Part shown: one piece after another, positions 3,312 to 18,792 of the stretch | Position numbering within the stretch: the first letter of the stretch is position 1 | Layout: each line of letters starts with the position of its first letter | Assembly (NCBI GenBank): GCA_020634795.1 | Contig: JACKAZ010000006.1 | Location: 76,376 to 100,375, forward strand | Origin: Ardenticatenales bacterium | Lineage (GTDB): Bacteria > Chloroflexota > Anaerolineae > Ardenticatenales > Ardenticatenaceae | Length of the DNA: 24,000 bases | Reading direction: 5' to 3' | The notes under the pieces: generated by a model | Seen by the model: the letters and a program-made list of their open reading frames with translations, nothing else | The model's database searches: none | Told to the model about the DNA's origin: nothing | Made by a program: the position numbers and the translations under genes

Positions 3312-4460
3312 ATGGCACTGGCACTCTTTCGACGACAAAGCGCGACCCAAAAGCGGATTCGACGTGTGACGCAGCGCAGCAGCGACTGGTGGCTGTTGGC
3401 AGCGGTCTTCGCCCTGCTGTTGATCGGCATCCTGATGGTCTTCGCCTCGACCTACTCCACGTCTTATGTCAATTCCGATGGAAAGACCGCGACCTCCTAT
3501 ATCGTCAAACATCTGCAGTGGATCGGGATCGGGAGTGCTGTCGCTCTCGTGGCCTGGCTCTCCGACTACCGGTGGCTCAAACGAGTGAGCGTGCTACTGA
3601 TGATCGGCACCTTGGTGGCGCTGTTCGCGCTCTTCTTCATGGGCAAAGCGACCTTCGGGGCCACCCGCTGGCTTTTCAACGGCTCGATCCAGCCGTCAGA
3701 ATTCGCCAAGCTCGCCACGATCATCTATGTCGCCCATTGGGCCTCTTCCAAAGAAAAGCGAATCAGTGATTTTAAGCAGGGTTTCATTCCCTTCATGGTA
3801 CTGGTGGCCCTCGTCTGTGGTCTGATCGTGATTCAGCCCAGCCTGTCGACCGCGCTGTTGGTCGGGCTGGTGGCGGGCACGATGTTCTTCGTCAGCGGCG
3901 CCGACATCAAGCAATTGTTGGCGGTGGGCAGTGGCGTGGGCGTGCTGACCTGGTTGGTGGCCAGTGCTGGCTGGCGCTTACAACGGATCGAAACGTGGCG
4001 CAACCCGTGGGTCGATCCCGCCGACGCGGGCTACCAGACGACGCACATGCTCTATGCGCTGGCCAAAGGGGGCCTTTTGGGGCAGGGGCTGGGCCGCATC
4101 GGTGGCGACGGCTTTCCCTATGTACCGGCGATCCACACCGACTTGATCATGGCGGTGGTGGGCCACGAGGGCGGTTTGCTGGCCTGCATGGTCGTCTTGG
4201 CGCTCTTTGTGCTCTTGACCTATCGCGGCTTTCACGTTGCGGTCAACGCGCCGGATGCCTTTGGCACGGTGCTGGCCTCGGGCATCACGATCTGGTTCTG
4301 CCTCCAAGCGCTCCTGAATCTGGCGGTGATTACCAACTCGATCCCGACAACGGGAATCCCGATGCCCTTTATTTCCTACGGCGGTAGTGGGCTGGTCACC
4401 GCGATGGCGGGGGTCGGCATCCTGCTCAGCATCTCCAGAGCCGTCCCGAAGAAAGCGTAA
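3312..4460 (+). CDS. ftsW: SEDS-family peptidoglycan glycosyltransferase / lipid II flippase-type protein FtsW
   Basis: About 10 hydrophobic segments, SEFAKL and PFISYGGSGL motifs typical of FtsW/RodA, and a position between murD and murG. ATG 3312 was chosen because the TTG-initiated upstream part of the ORF is Arg-rich and non-membrane. The start is less certain than the stop. Confidence 0.88.
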   Translation: MALALFRRQSATQKRIRRVTQRSSDWWLLAAVFALLLIGILMVFASTYSTSYVNSDGKTATSYIVKHLQWIGIGSAVALVAWLSDYRWLKRVSVLLMIGTLVALFALFFMGKATFGATRWLFNGSIQPSEFAKLATIIYVAHWASSKEKRISDFKQGFIPFMVLVALVCGLIVIQPSLSTALLVGLVAGTMFFVSGADIKQLLAVGSGVGVLTWLVASAGWRLQRIETWRNPWVDPADAGYQTTHMLYALAKGGLLGQGLGRIGGDGFPYVPAIHTDLIMAVVGHEGGLLACMVVLALFVLLTYRGFHVAVNAPDAFGTVLASGITIWFCLQALLNLAVITNSIPTTGIPMPFISYGGSGLVTAMAGVGILLSISRAVPKKA

Positions 4461-12187: not shown

Positions 12188-13336
12188 ATGTACGGATACA
12201 ACGACCGCTCAACGAAAGGAATCGATGTGGAGAACTTTGCCAATATCAAGGTGATTGGCGTGGGTGGCGGCGGCTCGAACGCGGTCAACCGCATGATTTT
12301 GGAAGGCATTCATGGCGTGGATTTCATCGCACTGAACACCGATGCCCAAGCGTTAATGCTTTCCGATGCCCCCCACCGCATCCGCATCGGGGACAAGCTG
12401 ACGCGCGGTCTGGGTGCGGGGGGGAACCCCGAGATCGGCATGAAAGCGGCCGAAGAGAGCGAAGATGAGCTGCGGGAAGCGCTGAACGGCGCGGATATGG
12501 TTTTCATCACCGCAGGGCTGGGCGGCGGCACCGGCACGCTGGCCTCGTCGGTGGTGGCGCGCGTCGCCCGCGAAGCCGGCGCCCTGACGATCGGTGTGGT
12601 GACGCGTCCCTTCACCTTCGAGGGCAACCGCCGTGCCGAAAACGCGCGCGTCGGGCTGCAAGCGTTGCAGGACATGGTGGACACGCTGATCGTGATTCCC
12701 AACGACCGACTGCTCCAGATCGTTGATAAGCGCGTGTCGATGCAGGAAGCTTTCCGCACGGCGGACGACGTGCTGCGGCAGGGGATCCAAGGCATTTCGG
12801 AGCTGATCACGAAGCCAGGCTTGATCAACTTGGACTTCTCCGACGTGCGCTCGATCATGGAGCACGGCGGCGCGGCCTTGATGGCGGTGGGGATCGGCAA
12901 GGGCGAAAATCGCGCCATCGATGCCGCCAACATGGCGATCTCCAGCCCGCTGCTGGACATCACGATCGATGGGGCGCAGGGCGTGCTCTTCAACATCACG
13001 GGCGGCAGCGACCTCAGCCTGTTCGAGGTCAACGAAGCGGCGGAGATCATCCGCAGCACGACCGACCCCAACGCCAACATCATCTTTGGCGCGGTGGTCG
13101 ATCCGGAGATGCAAGACGAACTGCAGATCACGGTCATCGCCACCGGCTTCAACAAAGAGAACAGCCCGCGCAGCCAGCCGCGCACGGTCGCAACGCCGCG
13201 CCCCGCCACTGCCGCGAATCAAGCGTCGGCGGTGGCAGCCAGCAGCGCAACCGCCCGCAACGACAAGCGCGACTTCCCGGTCCGCAGCTTCGACCGCGAA
13301 GATCTGGACATTCCGGCCTTCCTGCGCCGTCGCTAG
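12188..13336 (+). CDS. ftsZ: cell division GTPase FtsZ
   Basis: [13 protein letters not shown] and tubulin signature GGGTGT(L), NTDAQAL, and the C-terminal conserved peptide [16 protein letters not shown] (12178-12184) lies just upstream of the ATG. Confidence 0.97.
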
Positions 13337-13365
13337 TCCTTTCGCTCGACCTCCCATCAACCGAA

Positions 13366-13397
13366 CAGCGCCCCGCGGCTTTTGTCGCGGGGCGCTG
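13366..13397 (+). terminator. perfect 12-bp GC hairpin 30 nt after the ftsZ stop (CAGCGCCCCGCG-gcttttgt-CGCGGGGCGCTG)
   Basis: Stem and loop read directly. No U-tract follows on either strand, so it is either a non-canonical terminator or an RNA-stability hairpin. Confidence 0.5.
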
Positions 13398-13403
13398 CCG
13401 CGT

Positions 13404-13466
13404 AGAGGAGCTTGGGGAGCTTGGGGAGCTAGAGGAGCTGGGGGAGCTGGGGGAGCTAAGGGGACC
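13404..13466 (+). repeat. tandem 9-mer array, 7 units of (K/A)GRGGAGCT, G-rich on the + strand
   Basis: AGAGGAGCT TGGGGAGCT TGGGGAGCT AGAGGAGCT GGGGGAGCT GGGGGAGCT AAGGGGACC. Confidence 0.95.
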
Positions 13467-13587
13467 GTTGATTTGCAAAGCGATGGAAATGCCATGGGCT
13501 TTGCACGTTCCCCGATTCACCATACGTCATAGAAGTACACGCTACCCACCCTCGATGGCGGAGCGGTTGTACCCGTGGCACCCCACC

Positions 13588-13608
13588 CCATTCGCCATTC
13601 GCCATTCG
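13588..13608. repeat. tandem heptamer (CCATTCG) x3
   Basis: Read directly. Related GATTCGC-type heptamers occur at 13619-13627 and 22774-22800. Confidence 0.9.
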
Positions 13609-13745
13609 GCGCTCAATGCGCGATTCGCACCCTATTCCCTGAACAGGGTGCGCGCATGCGTTGTGTAAGCCAAGCGTTTGCCGCCCGTTATCAGCCCGTG
13701 GCGTGTGGCGTGTCCAACAGGTCGGTTCAAAGATGGCGCCATGCC

Positions 13746-13835
13746 TGCTCCCCCAACTCCCCTAGCTCCCCCAACTCCCCTAGCTCCCCTAGCTCCCCCA
13801 GCTCGCCCAACTCCCCCAACTCCCCCAGCTCCCTC
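13746..13835 (-). repeat. tandem 9-mer array, 10 units of ARCTCCCCY, the reverse complement of the 13404-13466 unit
   Basis: TGCTCCCCC AACTCCCCT AGCTCCCCC AACTCCCCT AGCTCCCCT AGCTCCCCC AGCTCGCCC AACTCCCCC AACTCCCCC AGCTCCCTC. Confidence 0.95.
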
Positions 13836-13917
13836 CGCGCCCTCTTTTGGGGGATCGCGCTTCTCTAGAACGCGACACCCCTCGTGCGTACACCCCCGCG
13901 AACGCATCCTGTCGAGA

Positions 13918-13952
13918 TGTACATTTTGAAATCTTAAAATTCTTGTATTTGT
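13918..13952. other. 35-nt AT-rich tract (7 G/C of 35, 20% GC), a candidate DNA-unwinding element
   Basis: TGTACATTTTGAAATCTTAAAATTCTTGTATTTGT, counted by hand. The surrounding DNA is above 60% GC. Confidence 0.4.
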
Positions 13953-13983
13953 CCCCAATCCATCGTACGTCGATAGACGTTGG

Positions 13984-14110
13984 TTATCCACACGCACTAA
14001 AGAGGGATGCACAATAATGCACCGTTTTTGTGGGGTTGCTGGCCCGTTTTCCCCATACGGCAGGTAGTTTTCCCCACCAAATCGAGGGTTTTTCCACAAG
14101 CTTCTCCACA
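13984..14110 (+). promoter_or_regulatory. cluster of five co-oriented DnaA-box-like 9-mers
   Basis: TTATCCACA 13984-13992 (9/9 to the E. coli-type consensus), TTTTCCCCA 14047-14055 (7/9), TTTTCCCCA 14068-14076 (7/9), TTTTCCACA 14090-14098 (8/9), TTCTCCACA 14102-14110 (8/9). Confidence 0.5.
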
Positions 14111-14172
14111 GCCGAGCGCCCCCCACGTCGGTTTGTGTCAGACGGCTGGCTATGTTACACTTCTGCTCCGTT

Positions 14173-14220
14173 TTCCGCTATCTAGTGTCTCTTGACAAGA
14201 GACACCACTAGATATAGTAT
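14173..14220 (+). promoter_or_regulatory. predicted nrdR-nrdJ promoter (TTGACA-17 nt-TAGTAT) overlapped by two NrdR boxes
   Basis: -35 TTGACA at 14192-14197 and -10 TAGTAT at 14215-14220 (or TATAGT at 14213-14218). NrdR box 2 CCACTAGATATAGTAT (14205-14220) matches 13/16 of acaCwAtATaTwGtgt. Box 1 TTCCGCTATCTAGTGT (14173-14188) matches 10/16. The box centres are 32 bp apart. Confidence 0.6.
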
Positions 14221-14512
14221 TCTCATGCGCTCGGCACGGCAGATGTAGCCCTTGCACGTTCGCCTCGCGAGGGCGATGCCGCCCCAACGCTTTGCCGCGC
14301 CCCACCGCGTGAACGCTTTGCCGGACCCCTGCCTTAGCCTGGCTCTTTCACAGGGTTAGCATCGCCCCCCTGCCCCGCCACGCGCGGCCCCACGCGGTGA
14401 ACGCTTTGGCGAAAGCGTGGTGAACACTAGGCTGGGCCTGGTGGTCGTCCATGCTGTTGTCGTTGTCGACCTATTATGAACGCCGAGTCCGAGATTCGTT
14501 TGGAGTCACTCA

Positions 14513-15001
14513 ATGCAATGCCCCTACTGCCAACACGAGCAGAACCGTGTGCTCGATACCCGCACCGTCGGTGACGGCATCCGTCGCCGGCGCGAATGCC
14601 AACGCTGCAGCGAACGCTTCACCACCTACGAGCGGGTGGCTCGCGCCCCCCTGATGATCGTGAAACGGGACGGTCGACGTGAAGAGTTCGATCAAGACAA
14701 GCTCTTTGTCGGGCTGAAGAAAGCCTGCACCAAGCGTCCCGTCTCCATCAAAAGCCTTGATCAGATCGTCGATCAGATCGAAGGCGAATTGTACGGCCTC
14801 GGTCAGAGCGAAATCCCCGCCGACTTGATCGGCGAGCGGGTGATGAATGCGCTGATGGAGTTGGACGAGGTCGCCTATGTCCGCTTCGCCAGTGTCTACC
14901 GCCGCTTTGCCGATCTGGAAAGTTTGGCCGACGAAATCCAGAAGCTGAAGGCGCAGAAAGCCCTCGACGCTGAGCGCAAACGCCAGATGGCGCTGTTGTA
15001 G
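14513..15001 (+). CDS. nrdR: transcriptional repressor NrdR (zinc ribbon + ATP-cone)
   Basis: MQCPYCQ...RRRECQRCSERFTTYE zinc ribbon followed by an ATP-cone (VKRDGRREEFDQDKL...VAYVRFASVYRRF). GGAG lies 7 nt upstream of the ATG. Confidence 0.96.
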   Translation: MQCPYCQHEQNRVLDTRTVGDGIRRRRECQRCSERFTTYERVARAPLMIVKRDGRREEFDQDKLFVGLKKACTKRPVSIKSLDQIVDQIEGELYGLGQSEIPADLIGERVMNALMELDEVAYVRFASVYRRFADLESLADEIQKLKAQKALDAERKRQMALL

Positions 15002-15132
15002 ATCGCCTGCGCCATGACCATCACCTTCCTCATTCAACAATAAATTTTGCTGCGCGGCGGCGCCCTTGGGTGCTGTCGCGTAGTCATTTAATAGCTATCA
15101 CCGTCGATTACCATTCAGAAGGAGCCGCCCCC

Positions 15133-18100
15133 ATGTCCGAGTTCACGCCCGCCAAGTCCACCGCGCTAAACGGCAAGGCCGCTGCCAACGAGCCAAGCCA
15201 CGACAAGAATTATCTCTCGCCCCTCGGCGAGAAAATCTTCCTCGACCGTTATGCTTGGAAAGATGGCAGCAAGCAATCGCTGACCGAGGGCGACACGGTG
15301 ATCGTCTGTGTGGACGATGACAGCCGCCAACGGGAAGTCGCCACCGTGCAAGCGCTCTTCCGCGACGAGGGCTATGCCACCGTGAGGCTGCGCGACGGCA
15401 ACATGCGCGATGTGGCGATCGAACATATCGACAAGCCGATGGAGACGACCCCCGAACAGACGATGGCCCGTGTGGCACGGGGCATCGCCGAGATCGAGAG
15501 GCCCGAACAACGAGCGCTCTGGGAAGAACGCTTCCGCTGGCTGCTGGAGGGGTGGAAGTTCGTCCCCGGCGGTCGCACGTGGGCGGCGGCGGGCACCGAC
15601 CAGAATCTGACCTTCTACAACTGCTACGTCATCCCCTCCCCCCACGACTCGCGGGGCGGCATCGTGGAAACGCTGCAGCAGATGATGGAGATCATGTCGC
15701 GCGGCGGGGGCGTGGGCATCAACGTTTCGTCGCTGCGCCCACGCTACAGTTATGTCAAGGGTGTCAATGGCCGGTCGAGCGGCGCGGTTTCGTGGGGCGG
15801 TCTCTACAGCTTCGTGACGGGACTGATCGAACAAGGGGGGAGTCGGCGTGGCGCACTGATGTTAATCTGCAACGATTGGCATCCCGATCTGCTGGAATTC
15901 ATTCACTCCAAGCGAGAGATGGGCAAGATCACCAATGCCAACATCTCGGTGGGGCTGAGCGACGCCTTCATGGCGGCGGTGCGCAACGACGAGGAGTGGA
16001 CGCTGCGCTTCCCCGATACCTCGCATCCCGCCTACGACAGCGAGTGGGATGGCAACATGGAGGCGTGGGAGGCCGCGGGCCGGCCCGTCAATCTCTACAA
16101 GACGGTGCAAGCGCGCGAGGTCTGGCACCAGATCATCGAAAGCGCATGGGCCAGCGCCGAGCCGGGCCTCTGGTTCCGCGAACGGGCCAACGTGATGTCA
16201 AACAGCCACTATTTCAACCCACTGGTATGTACGAACCCTTGTGTAACCGGCGACACGTTACTTTACACGGCTGAGGGGCTCATAAGTGCTGAAGAGCTTT
16301 ACCAACGCGGTAACTTAGTGCAGGCCGTTATCGATAGTCGCTTCGGTCATTCGGAATCCGTTGTCCAAGCTTCTCATGTCTTCCGAACGGGCCGGAAAGA
16401 AGTCTTCAAGCTGCAAACGCGTGAAGGGTATTCTCTGCGGGCAACGGCTGATCACCGCATCATGACGGCACGTGGTTGGGTCGAAATGGGATCTCTCGAA
16501 GTCGATGACGAAATTCACATCTTGAACCAACGCGGTGGATTTGGCCAAGAAGGTACCGAATCCTTAGGACGCATATTGGGCTGGCTGGTCGGCGATGGCA
16601 CGGTCAAACAAGACAAAGCGGTTCTTTCCTTCTTCGGTGAGGAAAAGCAGGAGTTAGCACCCATTTTCGCTGAACAAGTCGAGGCGCTAGTTACGCCTCT
16701 TACTGCTACTAACCGAGAGTATTCCGTATCCGTCGTAGATGTCCAAGGGCGAGACGAAGCGCGAGTTGCCTCCTCCCGCTTGCTCTCGATCGCGGACGAC
16801 TACGGGCTTGTTGAAGAAAAGCATAGGGTTCCACCTAAGTTGCTCGTGAGTAATGAGGCGATGCAACGCGGCTTCCTTCAAGCACTATTCACGGCAGATG
16901 GGAGCTTCCAAAATGGCGGACCAAAAGGCGGCAGCATCCGCCTTGCCTCAAGTTACCTTTCCTTAATTGAGGAGGTACAGCGTCTGCTCCTTAACTTCGG
17001 AATTGCGAGCCGCATCTACACTGATCGCCGAGAGGCGGGCTATCGAGAGATGCCCGATGGAATGGGTGGATTGAAATCCTATTCGTGTCGCGCTCAACAC
17101 GAACTCGTGATCACAAAGCGAAATATGGTGACCTTTGCGGAACAAATCGGCTTCTTGATGGCCCATAAGCAAAAGGCACTGCAAGATTATGTTTCGCGCG
17201 GCAGACGAGGCCCGTACCAAGAGCGATTCACCGCACGAGTGGCGAGTGTTGAAGCTGATGGAGTGGAGGATGTCTACGACATTACCGAGCCGCTTACCCA
17301 CTCGTTCATTGGAAATGGAATCGTCTTACACAATTGCGGCGAACAGCCATTACCAGCGTGGGGCGTCTGCAACCTTGGCGCGATCAACCTGTCGCGCTTC
17401 GTGGAAGAGGGCGAGGTGGCATGGGAGACCCTCGGTAAAACGGTGCGCTACGCCGTCCGCTTCCTTGACAATGTCATTGACGCGACGCCGTATTTCTTCG
17501 AGGAAAACGAAGCGCAGCAAGGCCAAGAGCGGCGGGTGGGATTGGGCGTGATGGGCCTTGCCGAAATGCTGATCCGTTTGGAGCTGCGTTATGGCAGCGA
17601 GGCGGGCAACCGGTTCAGCGAGGAGCTGTTCAAGTTCATCGCCCACGAAGCCTATCTCGCATCGAGCGAGCTGGCCGCCGAAAAGGGCAGCTTCAGCGCC
17701 TTCCAGGCCGAGCCCTTCTTGCAGAGCGGTTTCATGGAAAAGATGTCGAGCGAAGTACGCGAAGCGGTCCGCGAGAACGGGATCCGCAACGTGACGCTGC
17801 TCACCGTCGCCCCCACCGGCACCACCGGCACGATGGTCGGCACGTCCACGGGGATCGAGCCGTACTACTTCTGGAGCTATTTCCGCAAGAGCCGGCTGGG
17901 GATGCACGAAGAGAAGGTCGATGTGGTGGCCGAGTGGCAGGCCGCGAACCCCGACCAGCCGCTGCCCGACTACTTTGTGACAGCGATGGATCTGTCGCCG
18001 GAGGAGCACGTACGGGCACAGGCCGCCGTGCAGGAATGGGTCGATAGCAGCATCTCGAAGACGGCCAACGTCCCGAACGAATACACCGTCGAGCAGTTGG

Positions 18101-18792
18101 CCGAGCTGTACGAGCTGATGTACGACCTCGGTTGCAAGGGCGGCACCGTCTATCGCGATGGCTCGCGGGACGAGCAGGTGCTGTCGGTGGCGAAAGAGGG
18201 CGAGGCGGTGGAAGAAGCGCTGGCCGCCCCCTTCGATCTCAGCCCCAACTACACCAGCCGCGGCGAGCACAAGCAGGCGCGGCCCCGCCGCCTTGCGGGG
18301 GCGACCTACTTCATCCAGACGCCGATCGGCAAGGCCTACGTCACTGTCAACCGCGACGCCAAGACCGAGCAGCCGTTCGAGGTCTTCGCCAACGTGGGCA
18401 AGGTCGGTTCCGAGGGCGCGGCGATGAGCGAGGCGTTGGGCCGGCTGATCTCGTTGGTGCTGCGAATTCCAAGCAACATCAGCCCCAACGAACGGCTGGA
18501 CATGGTGATCAGCGAGTTGGAGGGGATCGGTGGCTCGCGCAGCATCGGCTTCGGCCCGAACCGCGTCACCAGTCTGCCGGACGCACTCTCGCGCGTCTTG
18601 CGGGAGGATTTGGAAGCCGGACGTGACATCGAGGCCAGCTATCTGCTGGGTGAGGCCGAGCCGCCCGCCCAACAGCTCGACCTGCTTTCGACCACGATGA
18701 AAGCCGACCTCTGCCCCGAATGTGGTCACGCCTCCTTCGTGCGGGTCGAGGGCTGCCAGAAGTGCTATTCGTGCGGGCATAGTGAGTGTTGA
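15133..18792 (+). CDS. nrdJ: adenosylcobalamin-dependent (class II) ribonucleotide reductase NrdJ, intein-containing precursor
   Basis: GAAGGAG (15118-15124) lies 8 nt before ATG 15133. RNR motifs are present: NCYV, GGGVGINVSSLRPR, the finger loop TNP/CGEQPLP and TVAPTGTTG. The C-terminal Cys-rich tail CPECGH...GCQKCYSCGHSEC is typical of many class II RNRs. About 854 aa remain after removing the 365-aa insertion. Confidence 0.95.
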   Translation: MSEFTPAKSTALNGKAAANEPSHDKNYLSPLGEKIFLDRYAWKDGSKQSLTEGDTVIVCVDDDSRQREVATVQALFRDEGYATVRLRDGNMRDVAIEHIDKPMETTPEQTMARVARGIAEIERPEQRALWEERFRWLLEGWKFVPGGRTWAAAGTDQNLTFYNCYVIPSPHDSRGGIVETLQQMMEIMSRGGGVGINVSSLRPRYSYVKGVNGRSSGAVSWGGLYSFVTGLIEQGGSRRGALMLICNDWHPDLLEFIHSKREMGKITNANISVGLSDAFMAAVRNDEEWTLRFPDTSHPAYDSEWDGNMEAWEAAGRPVNLYKTVQAREVWHQIIESAWASAEPGLWFRERANVMSNSHYFNPLVCTNPCVTGDTLLYTAEGLISAEELYQRGNLVQAVIDSRFGHSESVVQASHVFRTGRKEVFKLQTREGYSLRATADHRIMTARGWVEMGSLEVDDEIHILNQRGGFGQEGTESLGRILGWLVGDGTVKQDKAVLSFFGEEKQELAPIFAEQVEALVTPLTATNREYSVSVVDVQGRDEARVASSRLLSIADDYGLVEEKHRVPPKLLVSNEAMQRGFLQALFTADGSFQNGGPKGGSIRLASSYLSLIEEVQRLLLNFGIASRIYTDRREAGYREMPDGMGGLKSYSCRAQHELVITKRNMVTFAEQIGFLMAHKQKALQDYVSRGRRGPYQERFTARVASVEADGVEDVYDITEPLTHSFIGNGIVLHNCGEQPLPAWGVCNLGAINLSRFVEEGEVAWETLGKTVRYAVRFLDNVIDATPYFFEENEAQQGQERRVGLGVMGLAEMLIRLELRYGSEAGNRFSEELFKFIAHEAYLASSELAAEKGSFSAFQAEPFLQSGFMEKMSSEVREAVRENGIRNVTLLTVAPTGTTGTMVGTSTGIEPYYFWSYFRKSRLGMHEEKVDVVAEWQAANPDQPLPDYFVTAMDLSPEEHVRAQAAVQEWVDSSISKTANVPNEYTVEQLAELYELMYDLGCKGGTVYRDGSRDEQVLSVAKEGEAVEEALAAPFDLSPNYTSRGEHKQARPRRLAGATYFIQTPIGKAYVTVNRDAKTEQPFEVFANVGKVGSEGAAMSEALGRLISLVLRIPSNISPNERLDMVISELEGIGGSRSIGFGPNRVTSLPDALSRVLREDLEAGRDIEASYLLGEAEPPAQQLDLLSTTMKADLCPECGHASFVRVEGCQKCYSCGHSEC
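16240..17334 (+). mobile_element. 365-aa intein with a LAGLIDADG homing-endonuclease domain, inserted in nrdJ
   Basis: It starts CVTGDTLL (block A) right after TNP. It has LRATADHRIMT (block B TxxH), LGWLVGDGTV and FLQALFTADGSF (LAGLIDADG motifs), and VYDITEPLTHSFIGNGIVLHN (blocks F/G), followed by Cys+1 of CGEQPLP. It is in frame (1095 nt). Confidence 0.93.

Follow-up and report, generated by a model that had tools for sequence, protein, structure and literature searches.

A co-oriented DnaA-box array upstream of nrdR-nrdJ in an Ardenticatenales bacterium, probably part of a control region for ribonucleotide reductase

The 24-kb stretch of Ardenticatenales (Chloroflexota) DNA that was analysed as a whole, referred to below as the window, carries genes that all lie on the plus strand, in the order mraY, murD, ftsW, murG, murC, murB, ddl, ftsQ, ftsA, ftsZ, nrdR, nrdJ and a gene for a cation-chloride (CCC) transporter. 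This order was established from Pfam matches and from gene calls on identical metagenome contigs. The original prediction had placed a cluster of DnaA-box-like 9-mers between genes that it labelled ftsZ and nrdR, and Pfam shows both labels to be correct. FtsZ, which is 73% identical to FtsZ of Ardenticatena maritima and has the same sequence as FtsZ of a metagenome-assembled genome labelled Anaerolineales, is encoded at 12188-13336 and is separated from nrdR by a spacer of 1,176 bp (the coordinates of nrdR and of other features are listed in Table 1). For nrdJ, the gene call of 1219 amino acids begins with the ATG at 15133, where a ribosome-binding site was seen; the longest open reading frame begins at 15070. 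The intein content of NrdJ varies among related loci (designated by L numbers below): calls of 870-877 amino acids in L112 and L116 are without intein domains, the 1219-amino-acid NrdJ of the window has one intein, and calls of 1644-1652 amino acids in L044 and L114 have intein domains listed twice.

Table 1. Features of the nrdR upstream region and of the nrdR-nrdJ operon (positions in the window)
Feature	Position	Strand	Basis or remark
AT-rich tract	13918-13952	+	Lowest-GC 35-mer of the 24-kb window
Conserved AT motif CTTAAAATTCTTG	13933-13945, within core 13930-13950	+	Six-lineage comparison
Sixth co-oriented box-like 9-mer TTGTCCCCA	13949-13957	+	2 mismatches; absent from the list of the original prediction
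Perfect consensus DnaA box TTATCCACA	13984-13992	+	Anchor of the array
Degenerate box GGATGCACA	14005-14013	+	Aligns with ATATGCACA or TTTGCACA in relatives
DnaA-box-like TTTTCCCCA	14047-14055	+	Pattern search
DnaA-box-like TTTTCCCCA	14068-14076	+	21 bp after the preceding TTTTCCCCA box
Double DnaA box TTTTCCACAagcTTCTCCACA, i.e., TTTTCCACA-agc-TTCTCCACA	14090-14098 and 14102-14110	+	1 mismatch per half
Putative promoter P1	-35 TTGTGT 14133-14138; 17-nt spacer; extended -10 TGT-TACACT 14153-14161	+	Start inferred near 14168
Two NrdR boxes CTATCTAGTG / CACTAGATATAGT	14174-14220; centres ~14181.5 and ~14212.5, 31 bp apart	+	Inverted repeat
Second promoter-like site TTGACA-17-TAGTAT	TTGACA 14192-14197; TAGTAT 14215-14220	+	Promoter scan; inside the NrdR linker
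nrdR, Zn-ribbon and ATP-cone repressor	14513-15001	+	PF22811, PF03477
nrdJ, class II, with LAGLIDADG intein	15133-18792	+	Ribonuc_red_lgC, TSCPD, Intein_splicing, LAGLIDADG_3

Direct reading of the sequence returned the five box-like 9-mers of the original prediction at the same coordinates and all on the plus strand, and the array is confirmed as an observation. With the additional 9-mer at 13949, six co-oriented matches to the pattern TTNTCCMCA lie within 162 bp (13949-14110). On both strands of the 24-kb window, this pattern has seven matches, against 0.92 expected, and none of 100 shuffles reached seven; six of the seven are those of the array, all on the plus strand. The region 13900-14200 itself was also shuffled, which serves as a control for its low local GC content. 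In 20,000 dinucleotide shuffles, the maximum per strand was two, as opposed to the six observed. No box with two or fewer mismatches is present on the minus strand of the same region. Box starts are in part spaced by about two helical turns (21 and 22 bp in the window), and comparable spacings of 22, 31, 32 and 42 bp are found in relatives.

The members of the array differ in how they fare in an alignment of six lineages. The 9-mer at 13949 is specific to the window and has no aligned box in relatives. The degenerate box aligns with box-like sequences in relatives, and its CACA is conserved in five of the six alignment rows. Overlapping this conserved degenerate box, the hexamer ATGCAC occurs twice, 10 bp apart, at 14007-14022 (ggATGCACaataATGCACcg; the second copy is at 14017-14022), and the same segment was scored as a weak minus-strand hairpin by a promoter/terminator scan.

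All six boxes are unchanged in the same-species contigs L001-L006, which therefore provide no information on conservation. Five more lineages (L043, L110, L111, L112 and L116, with NrdR about 75-78% identical) share with the window an ordered module upstream of nrdR. The module consists of an AT motif, an invariant TTATCCACA, a degenerate box of the ATATGCACA type, two to four more boxes, a promoter and two NrdR boxes, in this order. The further boxes of relatives often include a pair separated by 2-3 bp, and close pairs are located at 12673/12684 in L043 and at 3761/3773 in L111. All nine columns of TTATCCACA are invariant across the six lineages, while the upstream regions outside the shared blocks are only 43-52% identical (43-50% when the window is compared with each relative); blocks that are conserved amid this level of identity can be regarded as footprints of selection. 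In every lineage with the array, the nrdR coding strand carries all of the boxes, and the other strand carries none.

The gene that precedes the array is not the same in these lineages. The upstream neighbour of nrdR is ftsZ in the window, a short-chain dehydrogenase gene in L043, a divergent LacI-type gene in L110 and a divergent DUF6062 gene in L111, L112 and L116. In L043, three genes lie between ftsZ and nrdR, and in L110 the two are about 13 kb apart on the same contig. Since the neighbour differs and the array stays with nrdR, the array belongs to nrdR and not to the dcw cluster. A scan of contigs selected by FtsZ (from Amarolinea, Herpetosiphon and other Chloroflexota) found no nrdR or box cluster after ftsZ. 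The boxes of one scanned contig, L014, were considered as a cluster and rejected, being dispersed and located mostly inside open reading frames. A gene order with nrdR directly 3' of ftsZ also occurs in several Clostridia/Eubacteriales (L020, L021, L023, L026 and L027), and the neighbourhood is thus not peculiar to the Chloroflexota clade.

The array was absent from four sister loci, L044 (Ardenticatenaceae), L113, L114 and L117, whose NrdR proteins are 72-75% identical and which keep the promoter and the NrdR boxes. A metagenome scan with NrdR retrieved 64 further loci, all with at most 68% identity, of which 51 had usable upstream sequence; a box cluster was found in none of these 51. When the 51 distant loci were taken together with L043 and L044, the box density upstream of nrdR was 0.57 per kb, compared with a background of 0.26 per kb, the excess being driven by L043. 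Among the loci compared, only a narrow clade has the array, which is therefore not a general feature of nrdR promoters.

Downstream of the array, the TTG of the P1 -35 element and the sequence TATGkTACACT are invariant in the six-way alignment. The promoter of the array-bearing lineages can be described as TTGnnn, a 17-nt spacer and an extended -10 element TGnTACACT. At the same place, the sisters that do not carry the array have TTGCAA or TTGCCx, 17 nt and TGnTAGAAT or TGnTAGACT. The double box of the window is centred ~68 bp upstream of the predicted P1 start. The two NrdR boxes that follow P1 are conserved in all relatives compared. NrdR sites have been described as two 16-bp boxes with a 15-16-bp linker (PMC13584703), and the 31-bp spacing of the boxes in the window fits this rule. 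Self-control by NrdR is described as frequent (PMC13584703, PMC9110341). The promoter-like site within the NrdR linker, a strong σ70-like site with a predicted start near 14227, is present in the window and in L043 and absent from L110, L111, L112 and L116. We infer from this distribution that P1 is the better promoter candidate; the site within the linker may be a second, lineage-specific promoter.

The AT-rich tract upstream of the boxes is as the original prediction had described it: 7 of its 35 nt are G or C (20% GC), and it ends 31 bp before the perfect box. What is conserved in it is a specific motif of about 17 nt. In each of the six lineages with the array, the motif CTTAAAWTTYNTG precedes the invariant box by 50-51 bp, and its consensus there is aaCCTTAAAwTTTnTGCAT (CTTAAAwTT..TG). 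The 35-mers of relatives that are equivalent to the tract have a GC content of 23-37%, with 37% in L043, L112 and L116. The specific sequence is thus conserved and strong AT-richness is not, which would favour recognition by a protein over helical instability. Most likely, the motif serves another protein as a site of recognition or bending and does not act as a DNA-unwinding element. At promoters that are not preceded by the array, its core CTTAAAATTCTTG is found in inverted orientation immediately upstream of the nrdR -35 element of L114 (3810-3822, minus strand), and in L044, L113 and L117, the sequence ATTTTAAG (followed by C or G) is located 11-21 nt upstream of the nrdR -35 element. These positions suggest that the motif may be a cis element that the nrdR promoter already had before the array came to separate the two. 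The motif was also considered as a σ70 promoter and rejected: a -10-like TAAAAT is conserved, but inspection of five relatives by eye revealed no consistently spaced -35 element.

That DnaA controls ribonucleotide reductase is established for E. coli, and such control has also been proposed for B. subtilis and Caulobacter. Upstream of E. coli nrdA, a co-oriented double box, TTATCCACAaagTTATGCACT, abuts the -35 element TTGCAA, NrdR boxes are located at the promoter, and AT-rich DNA lies upstream; the second of the nrdA boxes reads TTATGCACT. Double boxes of E. coli consist of two co-oriented boxes 2-3 bp apart and are also present at DARS1/2 and mioC, and DnaA binds the nrdA upstream region in vivo (PMC11317965). 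Whether DnaA acts on nrdAB as an activator or as a repressor depends on how much DnaA is present and on the nucleotide that it carries (reviewed in PMC8203912). Cell-cycle control of nrd further requires an AT-rich sequence located upstream (Sun et al. 1994, cited in PMC8203912).

The window resembles E. coli nrdAB in that co-oriented boxes, including a double box with a 2-3-bp gap, precede a ribonucleotide reductase operon on its coding strand, that NrdR boxes are located at or just after the promoter, and that an AT-rich cis element lies further upstream. The -35 sequence TTGCAA of E. coli is also found in L043 and L110. The differences concern number, distance and gene content. Five to seven boxes extend over 130-160 bp, whereas nrdAB has two or three. 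The array ends 23 bp upstream of the P1 -35 element in the window and ~50 bp upstream in most relatives, whereas the E. coli boxes abut the -35 element. Finally, the operon consists of nrdR and class II nrdJ in place of class Ia nrdAB, which puts the repressor's own gene under the array. Compared with known nrdR-nrdJ operons with tandem NrdR boxes, the window adds an upstream DnaA-box array, which is lacking in the four sisters with the same gene pair.

One of the two readings offered in the original prediction was that DnaA directly controls the ribonucleotide reductase operon in combination with NrdR. At the level of sequence, this reading is supported, since in six lineages the array accompanies the nrdR promoter, in one orientation and beside the promoter and the NrdR boxes. 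We consider it probable that the region is the control region of the nrdR-nrdJ operon, with predicted DnaA-dependent transcription control to which NrdR feedback is added. In such a scheme, DnaA would occupy the perfect box at all times, and ATP-DnaA would spread cooperatively over the weaker boxes towards the promoter, so that box occupancy would alter the recruitment of RNA polymerase. By analogy with E. coli nrdAB, low occupancy may activate transcription and a high level of ATP-DnaA may repress it. The synthesis of dNTPs would thus be tied to the state of initiation, with NrdR adding feedback that reflects the dATP/ATP pool. Some DnaA would incidentally be held by the array. Points that count against the regulatory reading are the narrow distribution of the array, its length, which is greater than a simple regulatory site requires, and the ~50-bp gap between the last box and the -35 element in most relatives, which is far for direct contact with the polymerase.

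DnaA boxes at a ribonucleotide reductase promoter are an arrangement of a known kind. The window differs from the E. coli case in the longer array, in its association with a class II enzyme and that enzyme's own repressor gene, and in the phylum; our literature search retrieved nothing on DnaA regulation or oriC specific to Chloroflexota. Should regulation by DnaA be true, a distant phylum would also couple dNTP supply to initiation, and the coupling could act on a class II enzyme and overlay NrdR autoregulation. Close lineages with and without the array would then provide a natural comparison for the gain of such a link. In draft genomes, Ori-Finder-type scoring of boxes and AT tracts could mistake the locus for an origin.

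The module may also be more than a promoter element, i.e., the origin of the clade located beside nrdR, or a datA/DARS-like locus fused to the ribonucleotide reductase promoter. We regard this as unlikely; if it were so, the ribonucleotide reductase promoter and the initiator would regulate each other.

It is distinctly unlikely that the array serves mainly as a datA/DARS-type locus of DnaA control, or as a titration sink, which would hold or recycle DnaA to time initiation and for which the position at the nrdR promoter would be secondary. Like E. coli datA/DARS and the DnaA-box clusters of B. subtilis, it is an intergenic multi-box cluster outside an origin that is predicted to be capable of holding DnaA. 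The number of boxes is above that of E. coli nrdAB and exceeds simple regulatory need, which leaves room for a DnaA-titrating or DnaA-cycle role. The fixed distance between the AT element and the high-affinity box recalls the architectural-protein sites of datA and DARS2, and double boxes are the format of DARS1/2 and mioC. However, the IHF consensus WATCAANNNNTTR has no match anywhere in the window, and the boxes are uniformly oriented, while the DARS core has oppositely oriented boxes. The array is also always co-oriented with, and adjacent to, one conserved promoter, and a pure sink needs neither. Titration and regulation do not exclude each other.

A further question is whether DnaA is the protein that recognises the 9-mers. 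Most copies in the window are TTTTCCCCA or TTCTCCACA and not the perfect consensus, as could be expected if TTnTCCmCA were bound by another transcription factor and the match to the DnaA box were coincidental. We consider this very unlikely, since one copy matches the nine-base consensus exactly and does not vary across six lineages, and since relatives carry two or three perfect or one-mismatch copies. In addition, the double-box format and the variant TTATGCACA, which is present at 12642 in the L043 array, match documented E. coli DnaA sites.

The other reading of the original prediction, in which the dcw cluster ends at a chromosomal origin, found no support, the array being tied to nrdR and sisters with the same nrdR promoter being without it. 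That the oriC of the clade is located beside nrdR, with the AT tract as the unwinding element and the boxes as the DnaA assembly site, is highly improbable. Such an origin would account for the fact that the window has its most AT-rich 35-mer within 200 bp of DNA that also holds one perfect and several weaker boxes, the AT-rich stretch being located ~30 bp from the cluster as in bacterial oriC. It would also agree with the fixed spacings of the conserved module and with the divergent transcription of the upstream neighbour in L110, L111, L112 and L116, and no better candidate is known.

Other features of the locus speak against an origin. The original prediction had itself noted that a strand switch is missing, and this holds true: the plus strand carries all genes on either side, including eleven dcw genes on the left, and L043 is alike. 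No minimum of GC skew is present at 14 kb; GC skew is +0.055 to the left and +0.020 to the right, with corresponding GC3 values of -0.009 and -0.094, a trend that runs counter to the change from minus to plus that an origin should show, 24 kb being a short and hence weak basis for such a comparison. Neither dnaA nor dnaN is present within the 24-kb window, and the module travels with a promoter. The boxes read TTATCCACA with the AT tract on their left, as opposed to TGTGGATAA at E. coli DUE-R1, and in this orientation a DnaA filament would head to the promoter and not to the AT tract. Origin function of B. subtilis incC is lost when its trio-proximal boxes are reversed (PMC6669920). The original prediction had recognised no DnaA-trio periodicity between the AT tract and the first box, and no run of at least three trio-like triplets follows any box of the window, as judged by a crude test in which the E. 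coli control scores only 3. The absence of minus-strand boxes and the GC content of only 37% of the equivalent tract in L043, L112 and L116 are further points against an origin.

Finally, the spacer is low in GC and rich in C and T, its GC skew reaching -0.4, and pyrimidine-rich 9-mers might have clustered in it by chance. This idea is refuted by the shuffle counts and by the conservation of the boxes as blocks in six lineages, the original prediction having named non-conservation in related genomes as the sign of chance.

Several other elements were observed in the spacer and in the leader of the operon assigned above to probable DnaA and NrdR control. Two open reading frames of the spacer, at 13632-14126 (minus strand) and 13575-13868 (plus strand), were rejected as spurious, as they have no Pfam match and are uncalled in six metagenome copies. 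An Rfam search of the whole window returned nothing at gathering thresholds and a single, chance-level match at E<=1 in 13300-14600; it follows that the spacer and the leader contain no known riboswitch or other known RNA. The leader of ~290 nt between the NrdR boxes and the nrdR start contains three copies of GCCCCAC(n)GCGGTGAACGCTTTGnCG at 14273-14411, likewise without an Rfam match, which may form part of a structured leader or represent another repeat to which a protein binds. Closer to ftsZ, tandem 9-mer arrays, (GGAGCTKGG)n at 13403-13465 and its reverse complement (GCTCCCCYA)n at 13729-13854, face each other ~290 nt apart. Their 56-nt arms are 86% complementary, and among 115 loci the facing arrays were found only in the species of the window. 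Between contigs of this species, the spacer is 1186 or 1177 nt long; the difference of 9 nt is one unit length, consistent with one repeat unit.
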